This document shows, piece after piece, positions 34,531-61,187 of a stretch of DNA of 64,000 nucleotides. Origin of the DNA: an uncultured Gammaproteobacteria bacterium (GTDB lineage: Bacteria; Patescibacteriota; Patescibacteriia; VMEV01; CAZAJQ01). The notes beneath the pieces are model-generated. The model made no database searches. It had not been told where the DNA came from and saw only the letters and a program-made list of their open reading frames with translations. Position numbers and translations under genes: made by a program. Position 1 is the stretch's first letter; each line of letters begins with the position of its first letter. The DNA lies in NCBI GenBank assembly GCA_964485795.1, contig CAZAJQ010000001.1:78014-142013 (forward strand). The letters are read 5' to 3'.

Positions 34531-34531
34531 A

Positions 34532-35508: not shown

Positions 35509-36054
35509 CTACTCCACGGAAATCTGTCCCGTAAGCCGATGAATGCGAACTTCTTTGTTTTTTCCGCTTTTTTCATCGCGTATGTGAATCACGGCCACAT
35601 CTTCGGAGGCGCATTCCCCGCTTGCGCTTGATTTGAAACAGATAAAAGGCTTGGGCGGTTTAAACGTCACATGGAGCGGAATAAACGGATCGGCGGAAAC
35701 GATTCGAACGTTTTTGGGGGTGAAAAAAACTTCCGTGTCCATGGCCTCCTGCGCGCCGTCATAATGAAGATTTCCGTTGACGTCGGCAAAAAGCCGATAC
35801 TCGCACGGAGGCGCGCCGCAAGCTCCGATGAAAAAACCGTATCCCCCTTCGGGAACTGCGCCCAGATACGGCTCACCCGTAATCGCAAACGCCTGCGCTT
35901 TTCGAATCGCGGACGCGAGCGCTTCGACGCTCAGATCCAGATCCCGTGAAGCGCCGCGATAATTGATAACCACGATGGTGGATAATATCCCGATAATGGT
36001 GATCGTCACGATCATTTCCAGCAGCGTAAATCCGCGCTCGTTGCTTATGTTCAT
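35509..36054 (-). CDS. type IV pilin/pseudopilin (GspG/PilE-like)
   Basis: MNISNERG then FTLLEMIVTITIIGILSTIVVINY. Confidence 0.85.
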   Translation of the reverse strand: MNISNERGFTLLEMIVTITIIGILSTIVVINYRGASRDLDLSVEALASAIRKAQAFAITGEPYLGAVPEGGYGFFIGACGAPPCEYRLFADVNGNLHYDGAQEAMDTEVFFTPKNVRIVSADPFIPLHVTFKPPKPFICFKSSASGECASEDVAVIHIRDEKSGKNKEVRIHRLTGQISVE

Positions 36055-36129
36055 AAAACGAAAAAGGCTAAAAAAATCGTCAATACTGTCGCAGGTTCGC
36101 GGTAATGTTCCCCCTGCACGATCGACATC

Positions 36130-37098: not shown

Positions 37099-37158
37099 GA
37101 ATGATCAACATGGAGTCGGAAGAATATTCATATTTCAGACCATCCCAAGCTGTGTAAC

Positions 37159-37647
37159 TTATATCGTTCCTCCCGGACTGGCTGTGCGAACCCCGGTCGG
37201 CAAACCTCCGGTACCGGATTCCAAGTAAAACTTGATGGTATAGGATGTTCCGGTGGAAACAAATGCGTAATCGCACACGGCCGTTGATGCGTCCGTACAT
37301 ACCGAAGCGGCTCCCGATTTACTCGGATCGCGAGGCACGCCTTGCATATACAAACTGCTCCCCGTGCACGTAGCCTCAAACCCAACATCCGTCAGACACA
37401 GGGCGGTTCCGCTCCCCAATGCCAGAGGACTGCCACCGTCGGACGGGTAGCTGTTGGCTTGCAAATAATACAGCTCCAAGGCTCCGCGGATATTGGCGAT
37501 ATTGGCCACTCGAGACGAATCCCTCGCCTTGGTCCTCGCGGTACCAAGCGCCAATACGGCCAATGTGGAAAGCAAACCGATGATGGACACCACGACCAAA
37601 AGTTCGATCAATGTGAAGCCCCGCGAAGAGTCTTTTTGTGTATGCAT
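37159..37647 (-). CDS. pilA: type IV major pilin
   Basis: MHTQKDSSRG then FTLIELLVVVSIIGLLSTLAVLALG. 162 aa; C-terminal Cys pair. Confidence 0.85.
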   Translation of the reverse strand: MHTQKDSSRGFTLIELLVVVSIIGLLSTLAVLALGTARTKARDSSRVANIANIRGALELYYLQANSYPSDGGSPLALGSGTALCLTDVGFEATCTGSSLYMQGVPRDPSKSGAASVCTDASTAVCDYAFVSTGTSYTIKFYLESGTGGLPTGVRTASPGGTI

Positions 37648-37686
37648 ACGACAAAAAATTAGAAAAAGTTAGAAGTGAATATTAAA

Positions 37687-38160
37687 TTACAAGACTCCAT
37701 CGGGTTTTGCGGTGCGAATTCCGGCTGAAAGATTGGCCACCGAGCTTTCCAGATAAAACAACAAGGTAAAGTCGCTTCCGTCGCCGCTTTGATAAGAATA
37801 ATCGCATACCGAAACCGAAGACACGGTGCACGGAGCATCAGCGTCGCGCAGAGACGGATCGCGTGGAATCACCAGCATGAAAGGGTTGGTGCAGCCGGCG
37901 GTCTTGAATCCCGTGGAATCAAGACACTTCCCTACCGTGCCAAGCGTCTTTGCCGTCGATTCGATGGGGTATTTGCCGTTTTCATTGTAATACAGTTCCA
38001 AAGCGTTCATGATCTGCCTCACGTCATTGGCTCTGCGCACGTCTCTGGCCTTCACCCGCGCGGATCCAAGCGCCACGACCGCAAGCGTCGAAAGCAATCC
38101 GATAATCGACACCACCACAAGAAGCTCCACCAATGTAAACCCCTTTGTTTTTTTATGCAT
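37687..38160 (-). CDS. type IV major pilin paralogue, tandem to pilA. The ORF track extends it to 38226; the internal start MHKKTKG is preferred.
   Basis: MHKKTKG then FTLVELLVVVSIIGLLSTLAVVALG. Shares ...ALELYY...CDY... with the neighbouring pilin. Confidence 0.8.
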   Translation of the reverse strand: MHKKTKGFTLVELLVVVSIIGLLSTLAVVALGSARVKARDVRRANDVRQIMNALELYYNENGKYPIESTAKTLGTVGKCLDSTGFKTAGCTNPFMLVIPRDPSLRDADAPCTVSSVSVCDYSYQSGDGSDFTLLFYLESSVANLSAGIRTAKPDGVL

Positions 38161-38229
38161 AGGATGAAAAAATAAAAAAGAAACAAATGTATGTAGCCTC
38201 TCAAAAACGGTTGATGCGTTTTTCAAAGG

Positions 38230-39426
38230 CTAAAAAGATCCGGCGAGATTGTACATCGGAAGAATGATCGCGGCCACCATGACTCCCACGGCGATACCCA
38301 TAAGAATCATCACGATCGGCTCTATTAAAGTTACCAAATTGTCAACAAGGCTGTCAATTTCCCTTCGATAAAAATTCGTTATTTTTTCAAGCACCAGATC
38401 GATCTTTCCGGTCTTTTCTCCCACACTGAGCATCTGCGACACCATGATGGGCATATACGGACTTTTTTCAAACACGGTTGCGATTGGACTGCCATCCTCC
38501 ACCTCGCGGATGGTTTCGTTGATCAGCTCTTCGTAAACGCTGTTTCCCACCACATCCGAAACGACCCGCAGCGCTTCGCTCAAGGGAACTTTTCCGGTGA
38601 TCAAGGTCGAAAGACTTTGCGTAAACCGCACGATATAAATGCGCTTCATGAGATTGCCAAACAGCGGCAACCTCAAGAGAATCGTATCAAATATTTTTTT
38701 CCCGGAAGGGTAATTCCACGCCACCCGTATGCCGATGACGACGCCGATCAACGATGCGATCACGAGCCACCAGTAGCCAACAAAAAAATCGCTGACCGCA
38801 ATGAGCATTCGCGTGGAAACGGGCAATGCGGTTCCTGTTTCGCGGAGTATGGAAGTGATCTTGGGAACCACAAAAACCATCATGATGATTCCGACGGCCA
38901 AAAGCCCGGCCATGAGAAATACCGGATATATCATGGCACCCTTGATGCGACTCATGAGGTCATGGTCTTTTTCCAGCTGATCCGCGAGATAATTGAGCAC
39001 GTCGGCGAGTTTTCCGGAAGTCTCGCCCGAACGGATCATGGCCACAAAAAAATTGCTGAACACCTTGGGATATTTCGAAAGCGAAAGCGAAAGCCTCGCT
39101 CCGCCCTCGACATCATCCGCGATATGGGAAAGTATTCCCCGAAGCGTAAGATTCGCGGTTTGATCCACGAGGATTCTCATGGCTTCGACGATGGGAACAT
39201 TGGCCGACACCATCACCGAAAGCTGACGGGCCATGATCACCACGTCGCGACTCGGAACACCGGAAAGAATCTGCAATTGAAAAACGCTCGTTTTTTTCAC
39301 GGAAAGGCTGACCACGGTAAGCTGATTTTCCAAGAGTACGGATGCGGCTTCTTCTTCACTTTCGGCTTCCACGATACCGGAAATCATTTCTCCTTCGGGA
39401 TTTTTGGCTTTGTAGTTAAAATACAT
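38230..39426 (-). CDS. pilC: type IV pilus platform protein (GspF family)
   Basis: 398 aa; two GspF repeats and three TM segments. Confidence 0.9.
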   Translation of the reverse strand: MYFNYKAKNPEGEMISGIVEAESEEEAASVLLENQLTVVSLSVKKTSVFQLQILSGVPSRDVVIMARQLSVMVSANVPIVEAMRILVDQTANLTLRGILSHIADDVEGGARLSLSLSKYPKVFSNFFVAMIRSGETSGKLADVLNYLADQLEKDHDLMSRIKGAMIYPVFLMAGLLAVGIIMMVFVVPKITSILRETGTALPVSTRMLIAVSDFFVGYWWLVIASLIGVVIGIRVAWNYPSGKKIFDTILLRLPLFGNLMKRIYIVRFTQSLSTLITGKVPLSEALRVVSDVVGNSVYEELINETIREVEDGSPIATVFEKSPYMPIMVSQMLSVGEKTGKIDLVLEKITNFYRREIDSLVDNLVTLIEPIVMILMGIAVGVMVAAIILPMYNLAGSF

Positions 39427-39436
39427 ACATTCAAGA

Positions 39437-41161
39437 TCATACCTGCATCACACGCAATACTTCTTCGTACGTGGTTACACCGGTCAAGACTTTCAGGAGA
39501 CCGTCTTGTCGCATGGAAATGGCCTTTTGCGAAATGAGTTCTTCATCGACCTCCTTTTGCTGAAATCCGCGGGCGATAATGCTCTGCATCTTTTCGGTCA
39601 CAAGAATCACTTCCGCTATGACCGTCCGACCTTTGTACCCCGAACCGTTGCATCGCACGCAACCTTTTCCTTTGAAAAACTTCATCTCCTCAAACGAAAC
39701 ATATTTCAGGTACTCTTTGGGAACCGACGCGACCTCTTCGCGTATGAGACGAATAGTCTCGTCATGAAGGCTGATTTCAGACTTGCAATTGGCGCAGATC
39801 TTTCTCACAAGACGCTGAGCCACCACGCCTTTCAAGGTGCTTGAAAGCAAAAAAGGTTCCACGTGCATATCCATCAATCTCGGAAAAGCGCCGATCGCGT
39901 TGTTCGTATGCAGGGTGGAAAAAACGATATGTCCGGTCAAGGCCGAATGCACGGCCAATTCCGCGGTTTCATTGTCACGTATTTCTCCCACCATGATGAT
40001 GTCCGGATCCTGCCGAAGGATGGCACGCAATCCCGAAGCGAAGTTGAATCCCACTTCAGCGTTCACTTGGGATTGATTGATGCCTTTGATATAGTATTCC
40101 GCCGGATCTTCCAAGGTCACGATATTGACGCCTTCTTCGTTGAGCAGATTGAGTACGGAATACAGCGTGGTTGATTTTCCCGCTCCCGTAGGTCCGCATA
40201 CGAGTATGAGACCGTACGCCTGATGGATGGACTTGTTTATCTTTTCGACGAACACATCACGGAAACCGAGCTGCTCAAGGGTCAAAACCACGCCCGAAGT
40301 GTCCAGAATTCTCATCACGACCTTTTCCTGCCCCAGAAGCGGCAAAGTCGATACGCGAAGATCGGCTTGGGCGCCTTCAAAATCGATTTTTATGCGTCCG
40401 TCTTGGGGTTTTCTCGTTTCGTCAAGCTTGAGATTGGCGAGCACCTTGATGCGAGACACGATCGCCGAATGCACATACATGGGAAGCACGGTTTTGACGC
40501 GCAAAATGCCGTCGATGCGATAGCGCACCTGACTCCCCTCCACCCGAGGCTCGATATGAATGTCCGATGCGCCGGCATCCACCGCGTGCTTGATGATCAC
40601 CGAAACGATTTTTGACACCGGTGCGCTCTTGATCACCTCTTCCATGGACTCTTCTTTTTTTTCCTCCGTTTTGGCTTCAAACTTCTCTTTTGCGCGGCCG
40701 AGGACGGCTTCGACTTCTTTGCCGAGAATCTTGTATTTTTTTATCAATGACAAAAAAGCCGTTTTTGCGATAAGAAAATACTCTACTTTCAAATCATGAT
40801 CCTTGGCGATAAACGCGGCCGCCTCAACGGCTTTGAAATTTTTTGGATCCAAAACTCCGACGGAGAGAGTTCCGTTTTCTTTTTTGAGAGGAATGATCGC
40901 ATAGGTTTTGGCGACTTCTTCTGGAATCAATGCCAATACGTCCTGCTGCACGTCCACGCGCGAAACGTCAAAAAACGGAATGCCGTAAATTTCGGATTTT
41001 ATCTTCACCGCATCGGTTTCCGCGACAAATCCGGAGTCAAAAAGCACATCGTCTTCGTTTTTCATCTCCGAAGCGATCTTTCTGACGAGATCGGTATACT
41101 GCGCTTCGGTAAGAAGCTTTTTTTCCCTGAGGCGGGATAACACGGGATAGGGTGTCGGCAT
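39437..41161 (-). CDS. pilB: type IV pilus assembly ATPase (GspE family)
   Basis: Walker A GPTGAGKST. T2SSE N-terminal domain. C-terminal CANCK...CVRCNGSGYKGR tetracysteine. Confidence 0.95.
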   Translation of the reverse strand: MPTPYPVLSRLREKKLLTEAQYTDLVRKIASEMKNEDDVLFDSGFVAETDAVKIKSEIYGIPFFDVSRVDVQQDVLALIPEEVAKTYAIIPLKKENGTLSVGVLDPKNFKAVEAAAFIAKDHDLKVEYFLIAKTAFLSLIKKYKILGKEVEAVLGRAKEKFEAKTEEKKEESMEEVIKSAPVSKIVSVIIKHAVDAGASDIHIEPRVEGSQVRYRIDGILRVKTVLPMYVHSAIVSRIKVLANLKLDETRKPQDGRIKIDFEGAQADLRVSTLPLLGQEKVVMRILDTSGVVLTLEQLGFRDVFVEKINKSIHQAYGLILVCGPTGAGKSTTLYSVLNLLNEEGVNIVTLEDPAEYYIKGINQSQVNAEVGFNFASGLRAILRQDPDIIMVGEIRDNETAELAVHSALTGHIVFSTLHTNNAIGAFPRLMDMHVEPFLLSSTLKGVVAQRLVRKICANCKSEISLHDETIRLIREEVASVPKEYLKYVSFEEMKFFKGKGCVRCNGSGYKGRTVIAEVILVTEKMQSIIARGFQQKEVDEELISQKAISMRQDGLLKVLTGVTTYEEVLRVMQV

Positions 41162-41167
41162 AGTTGA

Positions 41168-41458
41168 TTATGGTTCTACGGCAAAAGGATCCTGCTTGCC
41201 TTTTTGACCGATATCAAGGGCTCCAAGCGACGGCACGAGTCGCAAAAAACGATCGTCTGATAAAATATCTTTTTTAAAATCCACTGGAAACGGTTGCGCG
41301 GCGTGCGCGGGAACATTCAACGTTTGCCCCGCTTGGCTGCCAAACAACGCTTCCGTCAAAACATTGCGAAGCAAAAGCAGTACAACGGTGAACAGGACGA
41401 TCACGATAAGAAGAATCGTCAACGATTTGTTTTTTTTGGTTTCTTTGGTAAGCATCAT
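41168..41458 (-). CDS. small single-pass membrane protein in the pilus operon
   Basis: 96 aa, one TM (LTILLIVIVLFTVVLLLL). Confidence 0.45.
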   Translation of the reverse strand: MMLTKETKKNKSLTILLIVIVLFTVVLLLLRNVLTEALFGSQAGQTLNVPAHAAQPFPVDFKKDILSDDRFLRLVPSLGALDIGQKGKQDPFAVEP

Positions 41459-41482
41459 ACTTTCAGATTTTGGAAGCGTGAT

Positions 41483-42064
41483 TTATTTTTTGTCTTGAAA
41501 ATACACCCTCATCTCCACATCCGCGGTATCGCCTTTTCTTTGCACGGAAAAAGAAGTCACATCCATAAGCCGTTGATGATCTTCCAGCGAAATGATGAAG
41601 CTCTTCAAGGAAGCATAATTGACGGGTGAGACGGTGACCTTCACGTTCATGACTCCAGCATCCCGCAGATCCGAGGCGGCCGCTCCCTTGAGCTTCGCCG
41701 TTGCCGCCTGATCCGTCATGGTGACGCCAAGCACCACGAGCCCGCTTGACTGCGCGAGTTTTTCGATCTGCGCCAAAAGCAACGCTTCATTGCGATTTTT
41801 GGGAATAAACGACTCGATTTTTTCCCGATCCTGATCGGAAAGGCTTTCAAAATTTTCTTTCAAAACTCCAAGTTTCAGAAGCTTCGTCTTCAAAGTTTGA
41901 AGTTCAACCTCCTTCGCTGAAACGTCATTGACATTACCATTATAAAAACTTTTTGCTTTGGGAATAAGCACAAAAAAAGCGTATACGCCGACGATGAGAC
42001 CGACGATGACGATCGATGAAGCCGTAAAATGTTTTTGAAAAAATCCCTGTTCTTGATGTTTCAT
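41483..42064 (-). CDS. pilO: PilO-like pilus assembly protein
   Basis: Single TM, coiled coil, C-terminal domain. Sits between pilN and pilB. Confidence 0.65.
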   Translation of the reverse strand: MKHQEQGFFQKHFTASSIVIVGLIVGVYAFFVLIPKAKSFYNGNVNDVSAKEVELQTLKTKLLKLGVLKENFESLSDQDREKIESFIPKNRNEALLLAQIEKLAQSSGLVVLGVTMTDQAATAKLKGAAASDLRDAGVMNVKVTVSPVNYASLKSFIISLEDHQRLMDVTSFSVQRKGDTADVEMRVYFQDKK

Positions 42065-42094
42065 AAATTCTTCTTTTGAACCTCACAATGACTA

Positions 42095-42805
42095 TCATTG
42101 CCCTTTGGCCGTTTCCTTACGCATGAGAATGTCGGGACGCAACGAAAGCTTGAGGTCTATTTTCACGAGACTCAATTCCTTTCCATCCACATTTTCTTTC
42201 ACTTGGTTTGCCTTGCCTATTCCCAGGCCGGCAATGGCTTTTTCGGATGTTTGAAAAAGCTGAATCTGACGGGCAACGGTTCGATACGTCGGCCCCGCCG
42301 CCACCAGACGCACGTCATTGCCGTCTATGGACATTTCCGTATAAAAAACGTCATGCAACGTATTTTGCTCCAAAAATTGAAAAAGAAACGACCAATTCAG
42401 GTGCGAATCCAAAAGTTTTTCGGCCGTTACAAATTGCTTTTGAAGCCTTTCCGCATCTTGCTTCGTCGCATCAAAAAGCCGAATCTGGTCGTTGATTTTT
42501 TGGATATCATAATTCAGACGGGAAATTTCAGCGGACGCTTTTTTCCCTTGAATATCCAAAAACAAATGCGCCCCCGCCGTAAGAAAAACTGCCAAAGATG
42601 CCCAGATAAACATCATCAATCCCTTTTTTCGATTTTGTTCCGGACTCATGACCAAAAAACGCTCGGGCATGAGATTCACCTGCGGAGTAAATTCGTTCAT
42701 TTCCTTTTTCGCTCGATATCGGACGCCTCCTCCCCGTACGGTCGTTCCGGACGAAACTTCACTTTGAATGGATGAGAGATGGTAAGCGTCTTTTTTCATA
42801 CGCAT
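42095..42805 (-). CDS. pilN: PilN-like pilus assembly protein; the likely true start is MNEFTPQVNLMPE at 42700
   Basis: The VNLMPE N-terminal motif matches the PilN INLLP motif. TM plus coiled coil. Confidence 0.7.
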   Translation of the reverse strand: MRMKKDAYHLSSIQSEVSSGTTVRGGGVRYRAKKEMNEFTPQVNLMPERFLVMSPEQNRKKGLMMFIWASLAVFLTAGAHLFLDIQGKKASAEISRLNYDIQKINDQIRLFDATKQDAERLQKQFVTAEKLLDSHLNWSFLFQFLEQNTLHDVFYTEMSIDGNDVRLVAAGPTYRTVARQIQLFQTSEKAIAGLGIGKANQVKENVDGKELSLVKIDLKLSLRPDILMRKETAKGQ

Positions 42806-42851
42806 GCTGATGTTTGTTTATGATTCTCCAAAAAAAACTTCAAAATCGTTG

Positions 42852-43964
42852 TCATGAAGAAACGATATTGCGGAGGCTGCATCCGATGGCGACGGAAAAT
42901 GAGGGCCCGAGCTCCTCGAGTACGGGACGCAATTCTTCGGGATAAGAAACTTTTGCGAAAGGGTCTCCGATTAAAACTTGAATATCCAATATCTTCGAAA
43001 GAAACTCCGGCATCCCAGAAAAATAAGCCACTCCGCCGGAGAGGATAATTTTCTGAATTCGCCTCTGCGCGTCATCGTCGGACAAGGTCAAGCTGTGACT
43101 TTCCGTCTGATAAAGGTTCAATATGTATCGAATTTCATTGACGATCGGCAAAAAGGCGTTCTCGAGAAGCTTGGGCATATCCTGCCCGGTCGGAAGCACG
43201 AAATCTTTTTTCACGACCTCGGAGTCAAGGAAATCAACGCCCAGCGTTTCGGCGATTTTTTCGGAAATCTGTCTTCCGGCCACATCAATGCTGCGATTGA
43301 GAACCGGAATACCCCTGTCGACGATCGAAATATTGGTCGTCACCGCGCCGATATCCACGAGCATGAGAATATCCGGATCATTGCCCACGAGAGCATGTAT
43401 CTGAGCGAACACCTCGCTTTCCAATATCATGAGATTGAGATTGGCTTTTTTGAAAATTTTCACATAGCGTTCCACGAGATCTTTCGGAGCCGACGTAAGC
43501 AACACTCGAATGTTTTTTTTCGACTCGGAAATGATAACGCCTTTTTCTTGTGGCCGGATCGACTTTTTTTCACCTTCATCCAACGGTTTGAGCGTTTTCC
43601 AATCCAGCACCATTTCTTCCAAAGGCAAAGGGATGACCTTTTTTGCCTCCCATTGCACCGCGGACGCGATGTCTTTTTGCGGCATGTCCGGCAAGGTGAT
43701 GATGGAACTGAAAACAGAAAAAGCGGGCAAAGCCGCTATGACGTTTTTTGACTGAATACGCGAAACCTTTACGATTTCTTTGATCGTTTTCGCGACTTCA
43801 TCTTCGGATAATTTTTTGTGTCTTTGTTCGCTGCTTTCCTGATCGGAAAATCCGTAGGAAAGAAGCTTGGCGGTTTTACCTTCGGAAGCGAGCTCAACGA
43901 TTTTCACGGAAGCCGTGCCCAGGTCAACGCCCACGATGCTTTGTTTTGGTGTAAAGAAGGCCAT
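42852..43964 (-). CDS. pilM: type IV pilus assembly protein PilM (actin-like ATPase). The ORF track starts at a TTG at 44000; the ATG at 43964 is preferred.
   Basis: SIVGVDLGTASVKIVEL N-terminus; actin/HSP70-fold motifs. Confidence 0.85.
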   Translation of the reverse strand: MAFFTPKQSIVGVDLGTASVKIVELASEGKTAKLLSYGFSDQESSEQRHKKLSEDEVAKTIKEIVKVSRIQSKNVIAALPAFSVFSSIITLPDMPQKDIASAVQWEAKKVIPLPLEEMVLDWKTLKPLDEGEKKSIRPQEKGVIISESKKNIRVLLTSAPKDLVERYVKIFKKANLNLMILESEVFAQIHALVGNDPDILMLVDIGAVTTNISIVDRGIPVLNRSIDVAGRQISEKIAETLGVDFLDSEVVKKDFVLPTGQDMPKLLENAFLPIVNEIRYILNLYQTESHSLTLSDDDAQRRIQKIILSGGVAYFSGMPEFLSKILDIQVLIGDPFAKVSYPEELRPVLEELGPSFSVAIGCSLRNIVSS

Positions 43965-44002
43965 ACAAAAACGATGTTCGGAGTATTGCGCCGTATGCAA
44001 AG

Positions 44003-46597: not shown

Positions 46598-49081
46598 ATG
46601 TCCACGACTTCAAAATTCACAAAAAATCTTTCACGGGTCATCGAACAAGCCTGCCTTTTTGCGATGAAAAAAAACAAAAAAACCGTTGATCTGGCCGAGG
46701 TGGTGGATGCGCTTCTTTTTCAAAAAAAATCTCTCGCGTCGCAGATATTGCATCAGCATCCGGCTTTGATCAAAAAAACCGTTCTTTCGGCGAATCATGA
46801 AAATCTTCCGGAGCGCATCCCTGACTTTTCGGAAGAGCTCTCTCGAGCGCTTGGAAAAGCGACGATCATCGCCTATGTGTACGAGCACCGTTACTTGGGA
46901 ACCGAGCATCTTCTGGCCGCGCTTCTCGAACTCTTCAAGCCGAGCCTCGGAGCCATGCTCGGACTCGGCGTGTCCGACCTGCACTTTTTGGAACAAAAAA
47001 TCATCGCCGTGCTCAAAAACACGTCGAAATTGCCTGATTTGGAAGAAATCCTCTCGATGGCAAAAGAAAAGCAAACCCTTCGCAAAGAATATTCTCAAAA
47101 AACTTCGACTTCCTATCTCGATACCTGCACTGAAAATATCACGCAAAAAGCTTTTGAAAAAAAACTCGATCCTTGCGTGGCTCGAGACGCGGAAATCAAC
47201 CGCATCATCCAAATCCTCGGAAGAAGGAGAAAAAACAATCCCATCCTTTTGGGCCAGCCCGGGGTGGGGAAAACCGCCATCGTCGAAGGCCTTGCGTCTC
47301 GAATCGTCCGCGGGGACGTTCCCGATTTTCTCAAAAGGGGCAATATCCTGTCACTGGACACCAGCGCACTCGTGGCCGGAAGTTTTCATCGCGGGGAATT
47401 TGAATATCGTCTCAAGTATCTTCTCAATGAAATCCAAAAAAATCCGAACCTCATCCTTTTCATCGACGAGATTCACACCATTCTCGGCATCGGCTCTCAT
47501 GAAGGAAGCGTGGATATGGCCAATATCCTCAAACCATCATTGGCGCGAGGGGAGATACGCTGCATCGGCGCCACGACCTTTGACGATTATCGTAAATATT
47601 TCGAGCGCGACGCCGCATTGACTCGCAGATTTCAGCCCATCCATATTCATGAGCCGAGCACCGAGGAAACCGCGCTGATGCTCAAAAACATGAAAAAAGT
47701 CTATGAACAATTTCACAAGGTGAAAATTTCCGACGATGCCATTCAGAGCACCGTGAAACTCGCGGATTCTCATATTCCCGAAAGATTTTTTCCCGACAAG
47801 GCTCTGGATGTGATCGACGAGGCCGCATCGCAGCTCAAACTTTCGATGCCGCAAAGCGCGCTCGAAAGAAAGCTTTCGGAGCTCACCGCAAAAATGGTTC
47901 AAATGAAGGACAAAAAACGTGAGGCGTTACTGGCGGAAAATTTTCTTTTGACGAAAAAATTCAAAACGCAGGAAAAAAAAATGGAGATGCAACTGCAAAA
48001 AATATCTTCGCAAATCCAAAGCGCCCCGAGTACCATGCCTCTGCTTTCCAGCGATCATATCGGGCAGACGATTTCCATGATGACCCATATTCCTCTCGAT
48101 CATTTTCATGAAAAGACCGAAAACTCGTACCGAGATCTGGAAAAAAAGCTTCTAAAAAAAATCATCGGTCAAGAAAAAGCGATTCAAAACATCGCAAAAG
48201 CCGTGCGCATTCACAAGGCCGGCATTCGCGAGCAAGAGCGTCCTTTGAGTTTACTTTTTATCGGACCCGCCGGCGTGGGAAAAACCGCCGCGGCAAAAGC
48301 GGTTGCCGATATCCTCTATCCGAACGCATCCTCGTTTTTGCGTCTGGATATGTCCGAATACACGGAAGCCTTCCATGTTTCCAAGCTCATCGGCGCGCCG
48401 GCGGGATACATCGGATATCGTGAAAGCGGGCTGCTTTCCAATTTCATCTCGGAAAATCCGCATGCGGTCATCGTCTTTGATCGCATGGAAAAAGCGCATC
48501 CGGATGTGAAAAGCATCGTACTGCAGCTCATCGACGAAGGCGGATTGCGCGACGCAGCCGGGAAAAAGGTGAATGCCAAAAATTCGATATTCATCTTCAC
48601 GGTCGCCACATCCTCAAAGGAGGATTCCGTGATTTCAGGATTTGAAAAAAACGATGATCTTGGACGGACGAAAAAAATCAACACCTCCGCACAATCTTGT
48701 GAAACGGCGAAAAAGATATTTTCTTCGGAGTTTATGGACATGCTGGGTGAAATCATCGAATTTCGACCTTTTGACAAAAAAGATCTTCTGGCTTTCGCAA
48801 AGAACGCATTGGATCAGATTCGGAATCACCTTCTCACGCGCGGGAAAAATATCACCTTTGATGAAAAAGTGTATAATACTCTTATCCAGCACTCGGAGGA
48901 TACGAACATCAGCGTCAAAACGTTAAAAAAACACATCTCGGATCGAATCGAAGAATCGCTTGCCGACCTTTTGTTGACACATCATTGCGAGCATATTCAC
49001 GTCGGAGTGAAAAAAGAAAAAATAACGTTTAAGCTCAAGAAACATGACTCCAGAAGAAGCTCAAAATCAGGCTCTCGATGA
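46598..49081 (+). CDS. ClpB/ClpC-family AAA+ chaperone ATPase with two nucleotide-binding domains
   Basis: Clp_N-like N-terminus. Walker A GQPGVGKT and GPAGVGKT. Short middle coiled-coil. 827 aa. Confidence 0.9.
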   Translation: MSTTSKFTKNLSRVIEQACLFAMKKNKKTVDLAEVVDALLFQKKSLASQILHQHPALIKKTVLSANHENLPERIPDFSEELSRALGKATIIAYVYEHRYLGTEHLLAALLELFKPSLGAMLGLGVSDLHFLEQKIIAVLKNTSKLPDLEEILSMAKEKQTLRKEYSQKTSTSYLDTCTENITQKAFEKKLDPCVARDAEINRIIQILGRRRKNNPILLGQPGVGKTAIVEGLASRIVRGDVPDFLKRGNILSLDTSALVAGSFHRGEFEYRLKYLLNEIQKNPNLILFIDEIHTILGIGSHEGSVDMANILKPSLARGEIRCIGATTFDDYRKYFERDAALTRRFQPIHIHEPSTEETALMLKNMKKVYEQFHKVKISDDAIQSTVKLADSHIPERFFPDKALDVIDEAASQLKLSMPQSALERKLSELTAKMVQMKDKKREALLAENFLLTKKFKTQEKKMEMQLQKISSQIQSAPSTMPLLSSDHIGQTISMMTHIPLDHFHEKTENSYRDLEKKLLKKIIGQEKAIQNIAKAVRIHKAGIREQERPLSLLFIGPAGVGKTAAAKAVADILYPNASSFLRLDMSEYTEAFHVSKLIGAPAGYIGYRESGLLSNFISENPHAVIVFDRMEKAHPDVKSIVLQLIDEGGLRDAAGKKVNAKNSIFIFTVATSSKEDSVISGFEKNDDLGRTKKINTSAQSCETAKKIFSSEFMDMLGEIIEFRPFDKKDLLAFAKNALDQIRNHLLTRGKNITFDEKVYNTLIQHSEDTNISVKTLKKHISDRIEESLADLLLTHHCEHIHVGVKKEKITFKLKKHDSRRSSKSGSR

Positions 49082-49646
49082 TGAAAGCATGGCCGAGCAA
49101 ATCGCCGCCAATCAACGTTATGTGATGCAACAAAAGCAGCTGCAAAGTCAGCAAGCCGCGGCTCTCGCCGCCGAGCAAACTCCGAGCTATGGTGAAAATT
49201 TCCGAAAAAGGAGCAGAAATTTTCTCGGTACTCAAGGTATCGCCATGGTCACGAGCATGGGAATATCGTCCATCGTTTCATTTTTTTACATCATCTTTCA
49301 TTTTCTCTGCGCCGAAGTAGCCCATTCGTCGTATTTTTCAAAACTTGGAGAGGAATGGGTCGTGAAGCTGTATCCTACCGTTCGCGACGAAAAAGACATC
49401 AAGCGTCTCTCTTGGGGATTTCGTTATTTGGATTTTTTATTGCTCGGCATCACGGGAATGCTGATGATGATCATCATCGGGTTTCTCGTTGTCAATATTT
49501 CCCTGATTGTCGGCGTTTTTCAATGCATGCCGGAAATTTACAAGGTCGTCCCCATTCTCGGCTATATCCTTCGCGTCGCTTGCAGCGGTGTTCGCTTCAT
49601 TTATGATGCCGGCGTTTACGGATATGAGCTTATCAAGGGCGAATAA
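49044..49646 (+). CDS. hypothetical membrane protein
   Basis: 200 aa, Q-rich N-terminus, 3-4 TM segments. Overlaps the clp gene end by 38 nt. Confidence 0.45.
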   Translation: MTPEEAQNQALDDESMAEQIAANQRYVMQQKQLQSQQAAALAAEQTPSYGENFRKRSRNFLGTQGIAMVTSMGISSIVSFFYIIFHFLCAEVAHSSYFSKLGEEWVVKLYPTVRDEKDIKRLSWGFRYLDFLLLGITGMLMMIIIGFLVVNISLIVGVFQCMPEIYKVVPILGYILRVACSGVRFIYDAGVYGYELIKGE

Positions 49647-49708: not shown

Positions 49709-50974
49709 ATGCCACGTTTCTCACTTCGTCAATGGGCGCTTATCGGACTTCTCATCCTCTCGGCCGCCTTTGTGGGTTTTCTCATCTATGTCATCTTTTT
49801 TCAAGCCGTGCCGCCTTCCGTGACGACTCAAATACCGATCACCCAAGCTCCCGCGCAAGCTCCGGGCGGCTTGCTGGGACTTCCATCGGCACCCGTCGGA
49901 GCGCCTACCGCGCTTCCGGGTGCGCCGGAAGCGCCGCTCACCCCCGAGAAAGTGCGCCGATTGCAAGAAACCAGCGCAAAGGCTTCAGAAATCGCGAGAG
50001 GAGGAGTGACGAAAATCGCATCTACAACAGCCGCAAAAACTTTGAGTCCAAAAATCTCAAATGGCGGTCGCACCATACAATACTACAATGCGAACGACAG
50101 TACGTTTTACAGCATGGACCAAAACGGCAAAACCGTGAAACTCAGCGAAAAAACTTTTTTCGGCGTCGACTCCGTCACATGGAGTCCGGATGGCGGCAAG
50201 TCGATACTCGAATTCCCCGACGGAGCCAATATCCTCTACGATTTTGCAACCCAGGAACAGGTAACGTTGCCCAAGCATTGGCAGGAATTCTCCTTTTCCG
50301 CGCAGGGGGATCGCATCGTTTTCAAAAGCATCCCGATTGATGAGGAAGACAATTGGCTCGCGGTATCAAACATAGACGGTTCAAAGACGAAACTCATCGA
50401 AAATCTCGGCGGCGACCCGGGCAAAGTAAACGTGGATTGGTCGCCGAACAATCTCATGATCGCCACCTATACCGAGAGTTTGGATTTTGACCGATCGGAA
50501 CTTTTTTTCCTCGGACTCAATCAGGAAAATTTCCGGCTTACCGTCGTGGAGGGGCATGGATTTGAAGGCAGCTGGTCGCCCGACGGCGATAAAATTTTGT
50601 ACAGCGTATACAGCGCTCGCGATGATTTCAAGCCGCATCTGTGGATGGTGGACGCATTGCCCGACCGTATCGGAAACAATCGCCGAGATCTGAACCTCGC
50701 CACATGGTCGGACAAGTGCACGTTTGCCGGCGACACCACCCTGTACTGCGCTGCGCCGCTGGAACTCACGGAAGGCGCGGGGCTGGATCGCAGCTTGGCT
50801 TCCGAAACGCCGGATTTGATCTACAAACTCGACGTGGCCACCGGCACTCGCCAGCTCCTCGCGGTTCCCGACACCGAAATCACCGTCCAAAGCCTGATGA
50901 TCAACGAAGATGAATCGATCCTCTACCTCGTGGATGCCAAGGATCAGTCGCTCAAGCAGGTGAATTTGAAATGA
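49709..50974 (+). CDS. membrane-anchored TolB-like beta-propeller protein
   Basis: N-terminal TM, Pro/Ala-rich linker, repeated WSPDG/SPN beta-propeller blades. Confidence 0.7.
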   Translation: MPRFSLRQWALIGLLILSAAFVGFLIYVIFFQAVPPSVTTQIPITQAPAQAPGGLLGLPSAPVGAPTALPGAPEAPLTPEKVRRLQETSAKASEIARGGVTKIASTTAAKTLSPKISNGGRTIQYYNANDSTFYSMDQNGKTVKLSEKTFFGVDSVTWSPDGGKSILEFPDGANILYDFATQEQVTLPKHWQEFSFSAQGDRIVFKSIPIDEEDNWLAVSNIDGSKTKLIENLGGDPGKVNVDWSPNNLMIATYTESLDFDRSELFFLGLNQENFRLTVVEGHGFEGSWSPDGDKILYSVYSARDDFKPHLWMVDALPDRIGNNRRDLNLATWSDKCTFAGDTTLYCAAPLELTEGAGLDRSLASETPDLIYKLDVATGTRQLLAVPDTEITVQSLMINEDESILYLVDAKDQSLKQVNLK

Positions 50975-51015: not shown

Positions 51016-51780
51016 ATGCGTTTAAAAAAATTGTCACTTCTGTTCATCCCCTCTTTTCTCATCGTCTTCATCGGAATACTTTTTTTATTTTCCCGAAAAA
51101 CTTCGGCTTTGGAATTCCCCACCGATAAACTCTCGGTCCCCATCCCCACCCTTGAGCTCTCAACGCCCAAGGAATCCGGCGGACTCATCACCAATACATG
51201 GATTTCCGACTACCTCATCGGATTCTATCGTTTTTCATTGTACTTTGTCGGTATTGTCGGCGTCTTGTTTCTCATCGCCGGCGGTATTCTCTATACGACT
51301 TCCGGAGGTGATTCGGGGAAAATAGATTCCGCAAAAGAAATGATATTTGGCGCGGCGATGGGCATCATCATCATGTTCGGTTCTTATCTCGTTTTAAGCA
51401 CCGTCAACCCCGATCTGGTGAAATTCCCCGGACTTTCGATTTCGAAAGTGAAAGCAATTCCAAAATCATCGAAAGAAAAGTATCCGGGCACCGAAGGGTG
51501 CTGTCTCATATCACAATTTCTCTATTCAAAAACAGGAATCTCCTATTACGCACACTCATGCTATGCTCCTTCGGAAGAAACCATTTGCAATAATCTTGCA
51601 AATGGAAAAGGAAAAGAACCATTTGTGAAATACACATACCAACCGATCCGCCCCAAAGGTGATAACACTCCGGAATTTACATGCGAAAACGCTTCCACAC
51701 TTGAAAAAAAAGCATATCTCGAACAGGCGAAAGTAATCAATAAGGATTCTCAGCTCCGTTGCATGAGCACCATTGATTAA
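51016..51780 (+). CDS. TrbC/VirB2-like (T4SS-type) pilin domain protein with a Cys-rich C-terminal domain
   Basis: ...LSVPIPTL...YRFSLYFVGIVGVLFLIAGGILYTTSGGDSGKIDSAKEMIFGAAMGIIIMFGSYLVLSTVNPDLV (two TM helices with an AGG...SGGDS...AK loop), then GCCLIS... with 7 Cys. Confidence 0.75.
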   Translation: MRLKKLSLLFIPSFLIVFIGILFLFSRKTSALEFPTDKLSVPIPTLELSTPKESGGLITNTWISDYLIGFYRFSLYFVGIVGVLFLIAGGILYTTSGGDSGKIDSAKEMIFGAAMGIIIMFGSYLVLSTVNPDLVKFPGLSISKVKAIPKSSKEKYPGTEGCCLISQFLYSKTGISYYAHSCYAPSEETICNNLANGKGKEPFVKYTYQPIRPKGDNTPEFTCENASTLEKKAYLEQAKVINKDSQLRCMSTID

Positions 51781-51789
51781 GGCCTTCTT

Positions 51790-52530
51790 GTGAAGGTAAT
51801 GCCAAATGATTCCAACATGCAAACTTTTCTGCCCTACATTCTCTCCCGTTCGCTCGCACATCTGAAGTGGAAAATTCTTTTCATGTTTTTTTTCTTTTCC
51901 GTATTTTTTCCGCGTCATCTCTTCGCCGCCGCAAATATCGAAATCCCGACGCTTTCCGTGCCTTTCCTGTCCGACATATTGACAAAACCCGATGCCGGCG
52001 GTCGAATCACATGGATCACGGATTATGCGAGCGCTTTATACCGTTTCGGATTTTTGATCTGCGGGCTGGTGGCCGTGTTTTTTCTCATAGCGGGCGGCAT
52101 ACAATGGACGCTTTCCGCCGGAGACAGCGGAAGGGTCGAGCAGGCCAAAGAATACATTTCCGGAAGCATCATGGGCATGGTCATTCTTTTTTCTTCGTAT
52201 CTCATTTTGTATACCATCAATCCCGGGCTGGTAACCTTTGCTGGGCTTCGCATCCAAGGGCCTCCGCCTCCCGAAAAAGTAGAGGCAAAGGGTTGCTGTG
52301 CGCTCATTCATCCCCACCTTGCCGGAACCACCTATAAATGCGATGCAAATACCTACAGCAATAACTGCGAATATGTCGCAAAAACCGAAGGCTGGAGAAA
52401 TTGGTATTTTATCCCGGTCGGAAGCGAGAAAAGTATCTGCGTGGATAAAAAAACGAATCAACGTTCTGAATCATTTTATGTCTTATCCTCTCAAGGAGAT
52501 GTCACTTACACATGCGAATCCGTAAAATAG
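51790..52530 (+). CDS. TrbC/VirB2-like pilin domain protein with a Cys-rich C-terminal domain; paralogue of 51016..51780
   Basis: ...LSVPFLS...YRFGFLICGLVAVFFLIAGGIQWTLSAGDSGRVEQAKEYISGSIMGMVILFSSYLILYTINPGLV, then GCCALIHPHL...C..C...C...C. Confidence 0.75.
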   Translation: MKVMPNDSNMQTFLPYILSRSLAHLKWKILFMFFFFSVFFPRHLFAAANIEIPTLSVPFLSDILTKPDAGGRITWITDYASALYRFGFLICGLVAVFFLIAGGIQWTLSAGDSGRVEQAKEYISGSIMGMVILFSSYLILYTINPGLVTFAGLRIQGPPPPEKVEAKGCCALIHPHLAGTTYKCDANTYSNNCEYVAKTEGWRNWYFIPVGSEKSICVDKKTNQRSESFYVLSSQGDVTYTCESVK

Positions 52531-52533
52531 CCT

Positions 52534-54363
52534 ATGGTTTTTTTTTCAAAAAAAAATACCCTCAAACCCAATGAACGGCTCTTGCGATTCGCTCATAAGA
52601 GCTTCATCTTGACACTTTTGTTGGGCGCATTTTTTTGTTTTATCATACCCGCCCGAGCGCAAAATCAGGAAATCAAACTTTCCGTGCCGCTTTCGGATCA
52701 GCCGGTGAAAAATTACGGAGATTACATCTATTACAGCTTCCAATTTTTCACATTTGCTGCGAGCGTTATAGCGGTATTCATGCTCTTGGTCGGCGGAGTG
52801 CGCTGGATCGTGTCTGCCGGAAAAACCGATGAAATTTCCGAAGCGAAAAGCATGATATCCGGCGCCGTGGTGGGGCTCATCATTTTGCTGCTTGCCTATC
52901 TCATCTTGAATACGGTCAATGCGAATCTCGTCAAACTCCGAGCCCCCATCACCGGAGGCATATCGGAAGCCGAGCAAAAAGCCGCCGAATCGCTGACGTC
53001 GCAAGAAGCCGCATTAAAACTCATAAAAGAGGAGCAAAATCCAATCGAACCGCCTCGTGCGCTCGATGCCGGTGAAGCGGTTGCCCCCGCTACCAAAGGA
53101 ATTAAGGTCGCCGTGCCTTTTCCTTTTTTACCGGAAAATCTGCAAAACTTCGGACAGTATATCTCGGCTTTTTATCGATTCGGCTTTTTTGTCGCCGCCA
53201 TTATCGCGGTGTTGATGGCGATTTTTGGCGGGGTGCAGTGGACGCTTTCGGCGGGCAACAGCGAAAAAATCAGCGAAGCAAAGTCTTTTCTTGCAAACGG
53301 CCTCCTCGGGCTTGCTTTGCTTCTCTCCTCCTTTCTCATCCTCAATACGCTCAATCCCTCGCTTGTCAATGAATTCAGCCCTCTCAATATTTTAAACTCC
53401 CGCTCCCCCCTTCCCCCCACACCCGTTTTGACACCCCCAAAGGGGAACCAAATTCCCTTATCCGTACCGCTTCCAAACGCGCTTTATGTCTCGGATACGT
53501 TTGACTATATCGTCAAAATCTTTGAGTTCAGTCTCTACGCCCTCGCGATATTTGCCGTGCTCATGATCATCATCGCCGGATATATCTCCCTCACTTCAAT
53601 GGGAAGTTCGGAAGGAATACAAAAATCAAAAGAATTCATCGGCGGAGCCGTGATCGGCCTCGTCATCCTTCTTTGCGCGACCTTGCTTCTCAATACCATC
53701 GACACGGAATTGACGAGACTGGGCTTGAGCAAAGGACTGGCCGTGCCGGTGGTGGCGAAACGCTTCCTGTGCTGCAAAGATAAACTCGGAACCGTCAAGC
53801 GCGATCAATTTCACTATTCTTGCGCCGACCTCGGTCTCCTTGATGCCGATCCAAAGGAATGTTTTTCGGAAACGACGACCACCGGCTGCTGTCCGGTGCC
53901 AAAACTTGGAGGCCTCTATGATTGCAAGGATGGATATACCCGAGATATTTGCCAAAAACGCACGCTTGACGCCAGCGGCGCGGAAATCGTCACACAGTAT
54001 GACTTTTATCCCAAGCAGCAATGCAAAGACCTCGGCCGCATCTGCACAGGCGGCCAAAACGGTGACGTATGCGAAAAAAACAGCGACTGCGCCTCGTCGT
54101 TTTGCGTGGATGTGTGTGTCTTTCACAACCGAGCTTGGCTTCCGAATTATTTCAGATACTCGGGAAAATATTGCGCCCCATCCGAGGGTTTTCGATGCAT
54201 CAATTACAATCGCGACACCGAAACGCTCTCAAAAAATCCAAACTGTTCGTACGCTTTGCCAGTTATCGGAGAAGATGTGCTTTCAAAAGAACGATGTCTC
54301 GAATACTCAAAAGAAAACGATCCGACCATACCTGCAAGGATAAAGGCATGGAATCAGCTATGA
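52534..54363 (+). CDS. triple tandem TrbC/VirB2-like pilin-domain polyprotein with a ~210-aa Cys-rich C-terminal domain
   Basis: Three copies of the (LSVP..)-TM-[VGG/FGG][VRW/VQW][IVS/TLS]AG.[TDE/SEK]ISEAKS...-TM-LNT.NP.LV module at about aa 45-125, 190-275 and 300-385. About 25 Cys follow from FLCCKDKLG onward. The stop overlaps the radA start (ATGA). Confidence 0.8.
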   Translation: MVFFSKKNTLKPNERLLRFAHKSFILTLLLGAFFCFIIPARAQNQEIKLSVPLSDQPVKNYGDYIYYSFQFFTFAASVIAVFMLLVGGVRWIVSAGKTDEISEAKSMISGAVVGLIILLLAYLILNTVNANLVKLRAPITGGISEAEQKAAESLTSQEAALKLIKEEQNPIEPPRALDAGEAVAPATKGIKVAVPFPFLPENLQNFGQYISAFYRFGFFVAAIIAVLMAIFGGVQWTLSAGNSEKISEAKSFLANGLLGLALLLSSFLILNTLNPSLVNEFSPLNILNSRSPLPPTPVLTPPKGNQIPLSVPLPNALYVSDTFDYIVKIFEFSLYALAIFAVLMIIIAGYISLTSMGSSEGIQKSKEFIGGAVIGLVILLCATLLLNTIDTELTRLGLSKGLAVPVVAKRFLCCKDKLGTVKRDQFHYSCADLGLLDADPKECFSETTTTGCCPVPKLGGLYDCKDGYTRDICQKRTLDASGAEIVTQYDFYPKQQCKDLGRICTGGQNGDVCEKNSDCASSFCVDVCVFHNRAWLPNYFRYSGKYCAPSEGFRCINYNRDTETLSKNPNCSYALPVIGEDVLSKERCLEYSKENDPTIPARIKAWNQL

Positions 54364-55733
54364 AATCGCAAGAACCGTTTTATTCCTGCACGCATTGCGA
54401 CGCCCAATTTTCGAAATGGTCGGGAAAATGCTCGAAATGCGGACAATGGGGAAGTTTGCAAAAAGAATCGGAAGGAGCCGCTGCGGGAGTGAATCATGCG
54501 AAAGTCATGGCTTTCGATAAGATTGAGAAATCATTCTTGGAAAAAATCAGTACCGGCATTGCCGAGCTTGATACCGTACTCGGCGGAGGCATAGTCCCCG
54601 GAAGTCTGACACTGCTCGGCGGTGAACCCGGCATCGGCAAATCAACTTTGGTATTGCAAATCATGCACGGCCTTCTGCGCGATGCCGAAAATATGGTGCT
54701 CAAAGCTTCGGGTGAACGAAGCGGCCTCTACGTCTCCGGCGAAGAATCGGGTTTTCAGATCAAAACGCGCATTTCTCGACTCGGAATACCCTGCGACCGC
54801 ATGCTCTTCCTTGCGGAAACTCATATCGAAAGCGTTGCATCCGCGATCGTCAAGCTGCGTCCCGTGATCGTCATCATCGACTCGATACAAACCATGTATT
54901 CGGATCAGAACCCCGCCGAAGCCGGAAGCGTGAACCAGATACGCATCTGCACCGTGAAGCTGCTCGAAATCGCAAAACGCGAAAATATCCCGATCGTCGT
55001 CATCGGTCATATCACAAAAGACGGCGCCGTTGCGGGGCCAAAGACGCTCGAACACCTTGTGGACACCGTGCTGTATCTCGAAGGCGATCGGCATCATCTC
55101 TATCGCCTTCTTCGGGGGGTGAAAAACCGTTTCGGAGCGACGGATGAAGTCGGAGTCTTTGAGATGACGAAAAAAGGTCTCGCCGAAGTGCAAAACCCGT
55201 CCGCCATTTTTCTCGACCGTCACGAATCCCCGATACCGGGTACGGTGATTTCCGCGGTTTCTGAAGGCAATAAGCCGTTTCTCGTCGAAATCCAAGCTCT
55301 CGCGACGAAATCCGTTTTCGGCATACCGCAACGAAAGACTTCGGGATTTGACCTCAGCCGTTTTCAGATGCTGATCGCCGTGCTGTCAAAACGCGGCGGA
55401 CTGATGCTCCATGACAAGGATCTTCATCTCAATGTGGTGGGAGGCTATAAAATCAAAGATACGGGCGCGGACATGGCGGTATGCGCGAGCCTCATCCTCG
55501 CGGTAAAAAATACCAGCATGAATGAAAAAACCCTGCTTCTCGGCGAAGTGGGTCTGGGAGGGGAAATACGAAACGCGACGCATATGGCTCAAAAACTGAA
55601 AGAAGCCGAAAAACTCGGCTTCACAAAAGCGATTTTACCGCATAACCAGCATATCCGTTCAAAACTTCAACTTCTCACCATAAAAACTCTTGACGAATTG
55701 ATGTCAAAACTCGGAATTGAAGACGAAATATAA
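54360..55733 (+). CDS. radA: DNA repair protein RadA/Sms
   Basis: N-terminal C4 zinc finger CTHCDAQFSKWSGKCSKCGQW. RecA-like Walker A GEPGIGKST. KNRFG motif. Lon-like C-terminal domain. The ORF-track start at 54069 is an out-of-context extension. Confidence 0.9.
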   Translation: MKSQEPFYSCTHCDAQFSKWSGKCSKCGQWGSLQKESEGAAAGVNHAKVMAFDKIEKSFLEKISTGIAELDTVLGGGIVPGSLTLLGGEPGIGKSTLVLQIMHGLLRDAENMVLKASGERSGLYVSGEESGFQIKTRISRLGIPCDRMLFLAETHIESVASAIVKLRPVIVIIDSIQTMYSDQNPAEAGSVNQIRICTVKLLEIAKRENIPIVVIGHITKDGAVAGPKTLEHLVDTVLYLEGDRHHLYRLLRGVKNRFGATDEVGVFEMTKKGLAEVQNPSAIFLDRHESPIPGTVISAVSEGNKPFLVEIQALATKSVFGIPQRKTSGFDLSRFQMLIAVLSKRGGLMLHDKDLHLNVVGGYKIKDTGADMAVCASLILAVKNTSMNEKTLLLGEVGLGGEIRNATHMAQKLKEAEKLGFTKAILPHNQHIRSKLQLLTIKTLDELMSKLGIEDEI

Positions 55734-60476: not shown

Positions 60477-61187
60477 TTAATCCAAATAAAGTCCTATTTC
60501 CGAGGCATATCGATCTTTATTCCAGCTTTCCGGAGATTTGAGCACGCGACTGCCGTTTTTGAGAAATACCTTGGTATGCTGATAAGCAATGCCAAATTCA
60601 CGCGCCACATTCTTTTCATCTTCATCGGTTTCATTGTCATTGAAATTCACTTGAAATCCGATGACCTGATCGGTGTCAAGCTCATTGAACGCCGGATACA
60701 ACGCCGTTGAAACTTCAGCCTTGCAAATGGGACACCAATTGGCGTAAAAATAAAGCACCACGATTTTCCCGGATTTGAGAGCCGCCTCATAGTCAACGCC
60801 ATTGAACTCCAGCAATAAGGTTCTTTTCCCGGCGATGACTTTGCCCGTGAAGAGTTGCTGCTCTTTTTTCGGTTCAACGATTTTTCCATCGGTATCCTTT
60901 GATTGCGTCGCTTCTCCGTCTGAGGGAGCGGGTAAGTTATCATCCTTTTTTTTCATCTCGGCGTTTGGATCGATCGGCTTCGCGTCGGTGCCGACGTTTT
61001 CCGTTTTTTCGATTGAAACAGCTTCGTTGCTCACCGATTTGTTTTTCTTTGCCTCATCACCAGACTTGTCAGCCACGCGACTTTGAAATCGGCTCAGACC
61101 ATAAGCTCCGGCCACAAAAACAACGGCTAGTATAATAAAAACAAGAAACATGGAACTCACGCCTTTTTGACGATATGAAAACATCAT
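60477..61187 (-). CDS. membrane-anchored thioredoxin-like protein (TlpA/ResA-like)
   Basis: N-terminal TM; WCPICK CxxC motif in a thioredoxin fold. Confidence 0.8.
   Translation of the reverse strand: MMFSYRQKGVSSMFLVFIILAVVFVAGAYGLSRFQSRVADKSGDEAKKNKSVSNEAVSIEKTENVGTDAKPIDPNAEMKKKDDNLPAPSDGEATQSKDTDGKIVEPKKEQQLFTGKVIAGKRTLLLEFNGVDYEAALKSGKIVVLYFYANWCPICKAEVSTALYPAFNELDTDQVIGFQVNFNDNETDEDEKNVAREFGIAYQHTKVFLKNGSRVLKSPESWNKDRYASEIGLYLD

Follow-up and report, generated by a model that had tools for sequence, protein, structure and literature searches.

VirB2-like pilin hairpins, single and in tandem, with cysteine-rich C-terminal tails in a Patescibacteria gene block between clpC and radA

The closest described counterparts of the genes reported here are the VirB2-like pilin arrays of Patescibacteria, which consist of separate small genes (about 110–150 aa) that usually lie near virB4. 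Arrays of 2–11 such genes were counted in 383 Patescibacteria assemblies, with pilin genes near virB4 in 1,135 of 1,948 genomes (PMC12102498). In Candidatus Southlakia epibionticum, the one Patescibacteria species tested genetically, the pilin array and type IV secretion system (T4SS) are essential (PMC10633639), and T4SS_pilin is reported to be the most frequent Pfam domain among protein clusters specific to freshwater (10.1101/2025.04.23.650224). Here, we analyze three adjacent genes, A, B, and C, in a 64-kb stretch of contig CAZAJQ010000001.1 (the window). A and B each encode one VirB2-like hairpin module and C encodes three in tandem, and all three proteins end in a Cys-rich tail. The T4SS_pilin family (PF18895) and arrays of pilin paralogs are already known; the multi-hairpin form with ectodomains is widespread, and no description of it was found in the open-access papers searched.

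Hairpin modules and cysteine-rich tails of genes A, B, and C

The three genes were compared with PF18895, which has a curated cut-off of 26.6 bits. Gene C matches this family in three stretches (E 2e-17, 63.5 bits) and gene B also scores above the cut-off (E 4e-7, 30.5 bits). Gene A falls below it (E 0.0049, 17.4 bits), but its module is 53% identical to that of B and its database homologs carry PF18895. In an alignment of ∼96 columns, the five modules are 28%–53% identical and agree in every copy at 14 positions; the loop motif GG..W..S.G....I..AK is present. AlphaFold places one helical hairpin in each module of B and C, with predicted local distance difference test (pLDDT) values of 80–95, and the hydropathy segments agree with two-helix hairpin modules. 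The first-pass annotation of this DNA, a reading of the letters without database searches, had proposed five VirB2-like hairpins in three genes, three of them in a 609-aa protein, and had suggested structure prediction as a check; the number of modules, their distribution, and their predicted fold are all borne out. The small pilins of classical arrays have the same core sequence. On the strength of these comparisons, we assign A, B, and C as paralogous members of the known Patescibacteria VirB2-like pilin family, in a subfamily that carries ectodomains.

There are also weak matches to NCBIfam family NF045849 (Mbov_0395; gene C, E 2e-6, three stretches) and to DUF6112, both of which are pilin-like families of conjugative elements in single-membrane (monoderm) bacteria. 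A type IV pilus (T4P) pilin identity is ruled out, with no PF07963 (N_methyl) match in A, B, or C. At 254 aa for A, 237–246 aa for B, and 609 aa for C, the proteins are larger than the single-hairpin pilins of published arrays (∼100–150 aa).

Signal peptides were called by eye from n, h, and c regions and AxA sites. For gene B, the open reading frame (ORF) opens at a GTG, and the likely start is the ATG at 51817 (237 aa), from which the protein would begin with a charged n-region and continue to ...HLFA/AAN (here and below, a slash marks the predicted signal-peptidase site). The modules of gene C are joined by linkers of ∼50 aa between C1 and C2, partly helical, and ∼20 aa between C2 and C3, Pro-rich. 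Module duplication has left only short remnants at the DNA level and, since identity between modules is also low, we take the copies to be old and kept by selection. The same genes are found in GCA_016204025.1 (contig JACQLO010000002.1, a Parcubacteria-group metagenome-assembled genome) and in two independent Logan assemblies, so their structure is not an assembly artifact. Recent duplication is likewise ruled out by the divergence of the modules and by the presence of the gene in three independent assemblies.

The tails span 92–210 aa (113 aa in A, ∼210 aa in C) and hold 6, 6, and 18 of the 6, 7, and 20 cysteines of A, B, and C, respectively. Those of A and B both open with GCC, and a GCC ∼15–25 residues past the hairpin opens the tail in 24 collected proteins. 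Because BLASTP among the three tails is not significant (best E 0.05), we compared their cysteine frameworks. The spacing CC-x10-18-C-x8-C-x20-32-C is common to all three tails, and of 85 Cys-rich tails in relatives none has it; the pattern was defined after the sequences had been seen. This contrast supports a small domain shared by the three tails. The earlier description of homologous Cys-rich tails is thus upheld for their Cys-rich character and framework and corrected for the counts, given there as about 7, 7, and 25, and for homology at the level of BLASTP.

Relatives, proposed surface display, and the link to type IV secretion

A profile built from the five modules matched 64,972 proteins at E ≤ 1e-3 among 1.84 billion cluster representatives. 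About 80 of the best 150 of these matches carry at least two modules, a ranking by summed score that is enriched in multi-copy proteins. By Pfam, a single protein can hold as many as 11 PF18895 stretches (P0030, P0027; relatives are given by protein, P, or locus, L), and by the five-module profile 15–17. Three to seven modules followed by a Cys-rich tail are found in P0019, P0022, P0036, P0052, P0055, P0058, P0061, P0073, P0078, and P0124. PF18895 is matched in 88 of 97 relatives with long heads or tails, in which the fused domains include SLT (8), Amidase_2, VanY, Peptidase_M15_4, M23, and PKD. The closest homolog of gene C, P0002, joins four modules to an SLT lytic transglycosylase. Proteins in which one chain holds from 2 to at least 11 tandem hairpins are frequent in metagenomes, and the same is true of Cys-rich or cell-wall hydrolase fusions. 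The novelty first proposed for the architecture is therefore narrower than claimed, given that multi-copy and Cys-tailed forms are common and arrays are published (PMC12102498, PMC10633639, PMC12857230); these open-access papers make no mention of intragenic tandem hairpins or of Cys-rich or hydrolase fusions, and to that extent the proposal stands.

Hairpins fused to peptidoglycan-active domains were located in L005 (4429–7190), L022 (13232–14855), L017 (9797–10900), and L018 (9269–10960) and in P0004, P0006, and P0008. In such fusions, Pfam identifies YkuD, SLT, M23, VanY/M15, and Amidase_2 domains, and lysozyme-like and NlpC/P60-like motifs were recognized by eye. These proteins could supply a VirB1-type cell-wall hydrolase, an enzyme only weakly associated with virB4 in the survey of Patescibacteria (PMC12102498). 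At the other extreme, P0027 (L024, 10001–15328), P0030, P0029, and P0018 hold from 8 to at least 11 Pfam-counted hairpins in single proteins. P0027 is a 1,775-aa poly-pilin whose gene adjoins that of ribosomal protein L39e; its contig is probably archaeal, so poly-VirB2 proteins are probably not confined to bacteria of the candidate phyla radiation (CPR).

Several relatives lie in T4SS loci. L005 has the order VirB4, 146 aa, 273 aa, GIY-YIG, pilin+YkuD, four pilin modules+SLT, and a β-propeller protein, with dnaA adjoining. L022 has PrgI, TraC-like, VirB4, 159 aa, 224 aa, pilin+YkuD, pilin with a 12-Cys tail, and again a propeller. Both propellers are homologous to the one encoded immediately upstream of gene A (E 8e-26 for L005 and 2e-30 for L022). 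In L010, a pilin array lies 2 kb upstream of VirB4. The VirB4 of the L005/L022 type is highly conserved in Parcubacteria, with 8,000 matches at E ≤ 1e-20, the best 120 of them at 68%–100% identity.

With moderate confidence, we favor a model in which Sec-exported membrane hairpins display disulfide-bonded ectodomains, in or next to a T4SS surface structure. A, B, and C would each be exported via a Sec signal peptide, and each module would enter the membrane as a hairpin of two helices whose ends both face outward and whose GG..W..S.G..AK loop lies on the cytoplasmic side. Because the number of helices is even, the C-terminal tail would come to lie outside the cell, where its 6, 6, or 18 cysteines would form disulfides. 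The even cysteine counts of the tails point the same way, as do the peptidoglycan hydrolases (SLT, YkuD, M23, VanY/M15, Amidase_2) that occupy the tail position in relatives. A DsbA-like gene lies immediately upstream of the pilin-fusion genes in L009, L017, and L020 and ∼2 kb upstream in L007, an arrangement that fits oxidized, extracytoplasmic Cys-rich domains. The hairpins of gene C, derived from old intragenic duplications, would most likely stay covalently linked and occupy adjacent protomer positions, in a pilin polymer or else in a membrane pool or base. As the block of propeller and pilin-fusion genes lies directly downstream of virB4 in other Parcubacteria, its products are probably surface or contact components of a T4SS-like apparatus in host-dependent bacteria. 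What is exposed and evolves fast would be the variable Cys-rich tails, which might serve in binding.

As a separate observation, the minus strand of the window encodes at 60477–61187 a thioredoxin-like protein that is anchored in the membrane and has a WCPIC active site; it is a candidate for an extracytoplasmic thiol-disulfide oxidoreductase, in place of which L007, L009, L017, and L020 have the DsbA-like gene near their pilin-fusion genes.

A number of results weigh against the display model. A profile comparison with pilin families, proposed at the outset, succeeded with PF18895 for B and C, with A under the cut-off, but none of the three matches PF04956 (TrbC/VirB2) at E ≤ 1. PF04956 is matched only by more distant poly-pilin relatives (down to E 1e-42), and it is through these that the PF18895 family is tied to canonical conjugative pilins. 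A Foldseek search of the PDB with the gene C model returned nothing at E ≤ 0.001, the helical hairpin being too simple a shape to be informative, and a sequence search of the PDB with the module profile gave chance membrane matches only. The module loops do not clearly follow the positive-inside rule, and the tails are predicted with low confidence (pLDDT 30–65). No VirB4, VirD4, VirB6, or PrgI gene is present in the window, in agreement with the first-pass annotation for the three VirB genes, and the VirB4 of this genome was not found among the best 120 of the 8,000 VirB4 matches. Genes with three modules and a Cys tail in L025 and L026 lie in small pilin-fusion clusters with neither virB4 nor radA nearby. 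Finally, according to a recent review (PMC12857230), a pilus built of this pilin family has never been observed experimentally in any organism; the review calls the possibility of one “intriguing” but unproven.

The hairpin could instead be a general membrane anchor that neither polymerizes nor needs a T4SS and simply tethers ectodomains, with tandem copies giving a stronger or oligomerizing anchor. Its fusion to many unrelated ectodomains, on either the N-terminal or the C-terminal side, would be expected of such an anchor, and poly-hairpin proteins with almost no linker resemble ordinary polytopic membrane proteins. Moreover, there is no virB4 within 10 kb in the window, L007, L009, L025, or L026. 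However, these proteins and the small array pilins have a strongly conserved hairpin core in common, the loop motif is invariant although a simple anchor would have no need of it, and VirB4 is repeatedly followed directly by pilin-fusion and propeller genes. We consider a plain anchor possible but clearly the less probable account.

Display by hairpins that belong to a T4SS surface structure, the model we favor, also has a stronger form. The chained VirB2-type hairpins, three here and up to 11 or more elsewhere, might serve as multi-protomer units in a filament or channel of the conjugative type in a single-membrane bacterium, with disulfide-rich or cell-wall-cutting domains displayed along the filament. 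We regard this form as unlikely; if true, a T4SS pilus would be built and armed in a manner that no studied system is known to use.

A further question is whether gene C yields one protein or several. A motif of the form [DPI]x[LV][SA]VP[IFL] precedes all five modules, with IKVAVPF as its C2 version. In front of the first modules, it lies 4–8 residues after the predicted signal-peptidase site (A, ...TSA/LEFPTDKLSVP; B, ...LFA/AANIEIPTLSVP; C, ...ARA/QNQEIKLSVP), and the subfamily consensus past the signal peptide is F-x-P-Q-[VI]-x-I-P-G. In the wider family, a motif of this type precedes 59 of 161 first modules and 45 of 282 internal modules, compared with 11% in shuffled sequence. The first-pass annotation had noted (I/L)xLSVP(I/F)P before every copy and taken it as a possible processing site. 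On that reading, gene C would be a polyprotein cut before each LSVP into three pilins and a free Cys-rich protein, in the manner of TrbC/TraA maturation. In keeping with such cleavage, the motif stands ahead of each module not only in the window but also in P0002 and P0014, both close relatives; in first modules, it follows closely on the predicted signal-peptidase site; and C2 has an APA/TKG sequence ahead of it. Against it, internal junctions have no consistent AxA site or preceding h-region, several have a Pro immediately in front of the motif, the motif is absent from the majority of internal modules across the wider family, and many poly-pilins are essentially linker-less, their modules abutting. 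No TraF-like or extra signal peptidase gene is found in the locus, where the only nearby peptidases are an M48 peptidase and the type IV prepilin peptidase. Processing of gene C is therefore quite unlikely in our judgment. The broad motif is real before all five modules and, given the internal junctions, reads as the mature N-terminal segment of one subfamily, copied along with the hairpin.

Gene order between clpC and radA

The pilin genes belong to a run on one strand, lemA-M48 peptidase-clpC-200-aa membrane protein-β-propeller-A-B-C-radA, with short gaps or overlaps (Table 1) and no terminator-like site between A, B, C, and radA. As first annotated, gene C overlaps radA by ATGA, the TGA stop at 54361–54363 running into the radA ATG at 54360. 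An alternative radA ATG at 54348, with a better Shine-Dalgarno-like sequence (AAGGA) placed 8 nt upstream, overlaps gene C as well. The 200-aa membrane protein shows no similarity to the small proteins that follow VirB4 in L005 and L022, to the 273-aa L005 protein, or to a 984-aa protein of L009.

Table 1. Features of the locus and of the nearby T4P cluster, in window coordinates
Feature	Coordinates	Strand	Details
PilC	38230–39426	minus	T4P cluster
PilB ATPase	39437–41161	minus	T4P cluster
Prepilin peptidase	36130–37098	minus	T4P cluster
PilM	42852–44000	minus	T4P cluster
clpC-type AAA+ chaperone gene	46598–49081	plus	upstream neighbor of the 200-aa membrane protein gene
Polytopic membrane protein	49044–49646	plus	200 aa; no family match; start overlaps clpC end by 38 nt; lies between clpC and propeller
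TolB/Tricorn-like β-propeller protein	49709–50974	plus	421 aa; N-terminal membrane anchor; conserved partner of pilin-fusion genes
Gene A	51016–51780	plus	254 aa; signal peptide ∼residues 1–31 (...KTSA/LE), one pilin module, tail
Pilin module of A	51124–51441	plus	
Gene B	51790–52530	plus	ORF from GTG, 246 aa; one pilin module and tail
Pilin module of B	51946–52254	plus	
Gene C	52534–54363	plus	609 aa; signal peptide (...PARA/QNQ), three pilin modules, tail
Module C1	52672–52953	plus	
Module C2	53101–53388	plus	
Module C3	53452–53736	plus	
radA/sms	54360–55733	plus	TIGR00416, E 3e-152

Co-occurrence of these genes in relatives had been set beforehand as a test of the annotation, and the same neighborhood does recur. 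The order clpC-X-propeller-(DsbA-like)-pilin-fusion-radA-(recG) is found in full in L009, on a contig of 775 kb, and in part in L020 and L021. In each pilin protein of these three loci, a single hairpin is accompanied by a CCKC-type Cys-rich domain at the N terminus and a large domain at the C terminus, and the resemblance to A, B, and C is limited to the hairpin.

clpC and radA are adjacent in the clpC operon of Bacillus subtilis, so that their linkage is older than the pilin block. These gene orders are read most simply as an insertion of the block into a clpC-radA linkage that is old; radA would lie downstream of gene C because the block sits inside that gene run. The link first drawn between the pilins and radA as a recombination and transformation factor is better explained by this lineage synteny. 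A paper on the B. subtilis clpC operon is cited in PMC10633939. That the pilin genes act with radA and the nearby T4P in natural transformation, which would explain the translational coupling, is highly improbable: the ATGA overlap, the pilin-radA adjacency retained in L009 and L021, the presence of recG, ligA, and a T4P cluster in the window, and the import of DNA by a Helicobacter T4SS (as cited in PMC11665869) speak for it, whereas the age of the clpC-radA linkage speaks against it, pilin-fusion and propeller genes occur in virB4 loci without radA (L005, L022), pilin-fusion genes lie beside unrelated genes in L007, L025, and L026, the L009 pilin gene and radA are 20 nt apart with no overlap, and competence of Patescibacteria is ascribed to T4P and ComEC (PMC12857230).

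The T4P cluster itself looks complete. It occupies 33175–44000 on the minus strand, 7 kb upstream of the pilin genes, and includes four N_methyl pilins at 33–38 kb; it is more likely the competence or motility organelle of the organism. Three other parts of the window deserve mention. A mevalonate-pathway block, in a CPR bacterium, extends over about 18200–26700 and encodes HMG-CoA synthase and reductase, GHMP kinases, an MVD-like decarboxylase, isopentenyl-phosphate kinase, an FMN-dependent IDI-like enzyme, and a polyprenyl synthase. The segment at 5947–7908 has a G+C fraction of 0.30, compared with about 0.48 elsewhere, and contains two minus-strand ORFs with GAF-fragment matches or none; this DNA may be foreign or fast-evolving. 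It is followed at 8003–14201 by two large predicted surface proteins, one of 765 aa (CARDB) and one of 904 aa (Golvesin_C, glucodextranase-B-like, Ig-like).

Comparison with known systems

If chained hairpins with ectodomains make up a large share of the family, the label “pilin” may be too narrow, and the hairpin may be a means of mounting contact or cell-wall-cutting domains on a secretion apparatus. The locus offers a compact test case, with one-, one-, and three-hairpin paralogs that share a small tail domain.

Among the TrbC/VirB2/TraA pilins (PF04956) and the archaeal Ced-type pilins (PDB: 8dfu), each subunit has one hairpin and no large ectodomain. Cyclization or C-terminal trimming is not indicated by any feature of A, B, or C. 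The Mbov_0395 pilin-like protein of a Mycoplasma integrative and conjugative element (NF045849) belongs to a single-membrane conjugation system and is matched by gene C, but at 27 bits, against a family cut-off of 40 bits, gene C is a distant relative rather than a member.

A different likeness is to the VirB1-like hydrolases of Gram-positive T4SSs (PrgK, TraG of pIP501, and TcpG), in which, as in some relatives of A, B, and C, a membrane-tethered hydrolase lies beside a T4SS. The relatives in question (P0002, P0004, P0006/8, L005, L017, L018, and L022) combine the hairpin with SLT, M23, M15, YkuD, or lysozyme-like domains, with virB4 loci among them. In contrast, A, B, and C themselves have small Cys-rich tails and no recognizable hydrolase domain, and a pilin hairpin, not one transmembrane helix, serves as the anchor.

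The nearest likeness is to the VirB2-like arrays of Patescibacteria, exemplified by Ca. Southlakia epibionticum ML1 (PMC12102498). These are likewise PF18895 proteins with the same hairpin core, encoded as divergent paralogs side by side in host-dependent CPR bacteria. Unlike them, A, B, and C span 237–609 aa, place three hairpins in one chain, carry Cys-rich ectodomains, and are encoded between clpC and radA, with virB4 absent from the 64-kb window.

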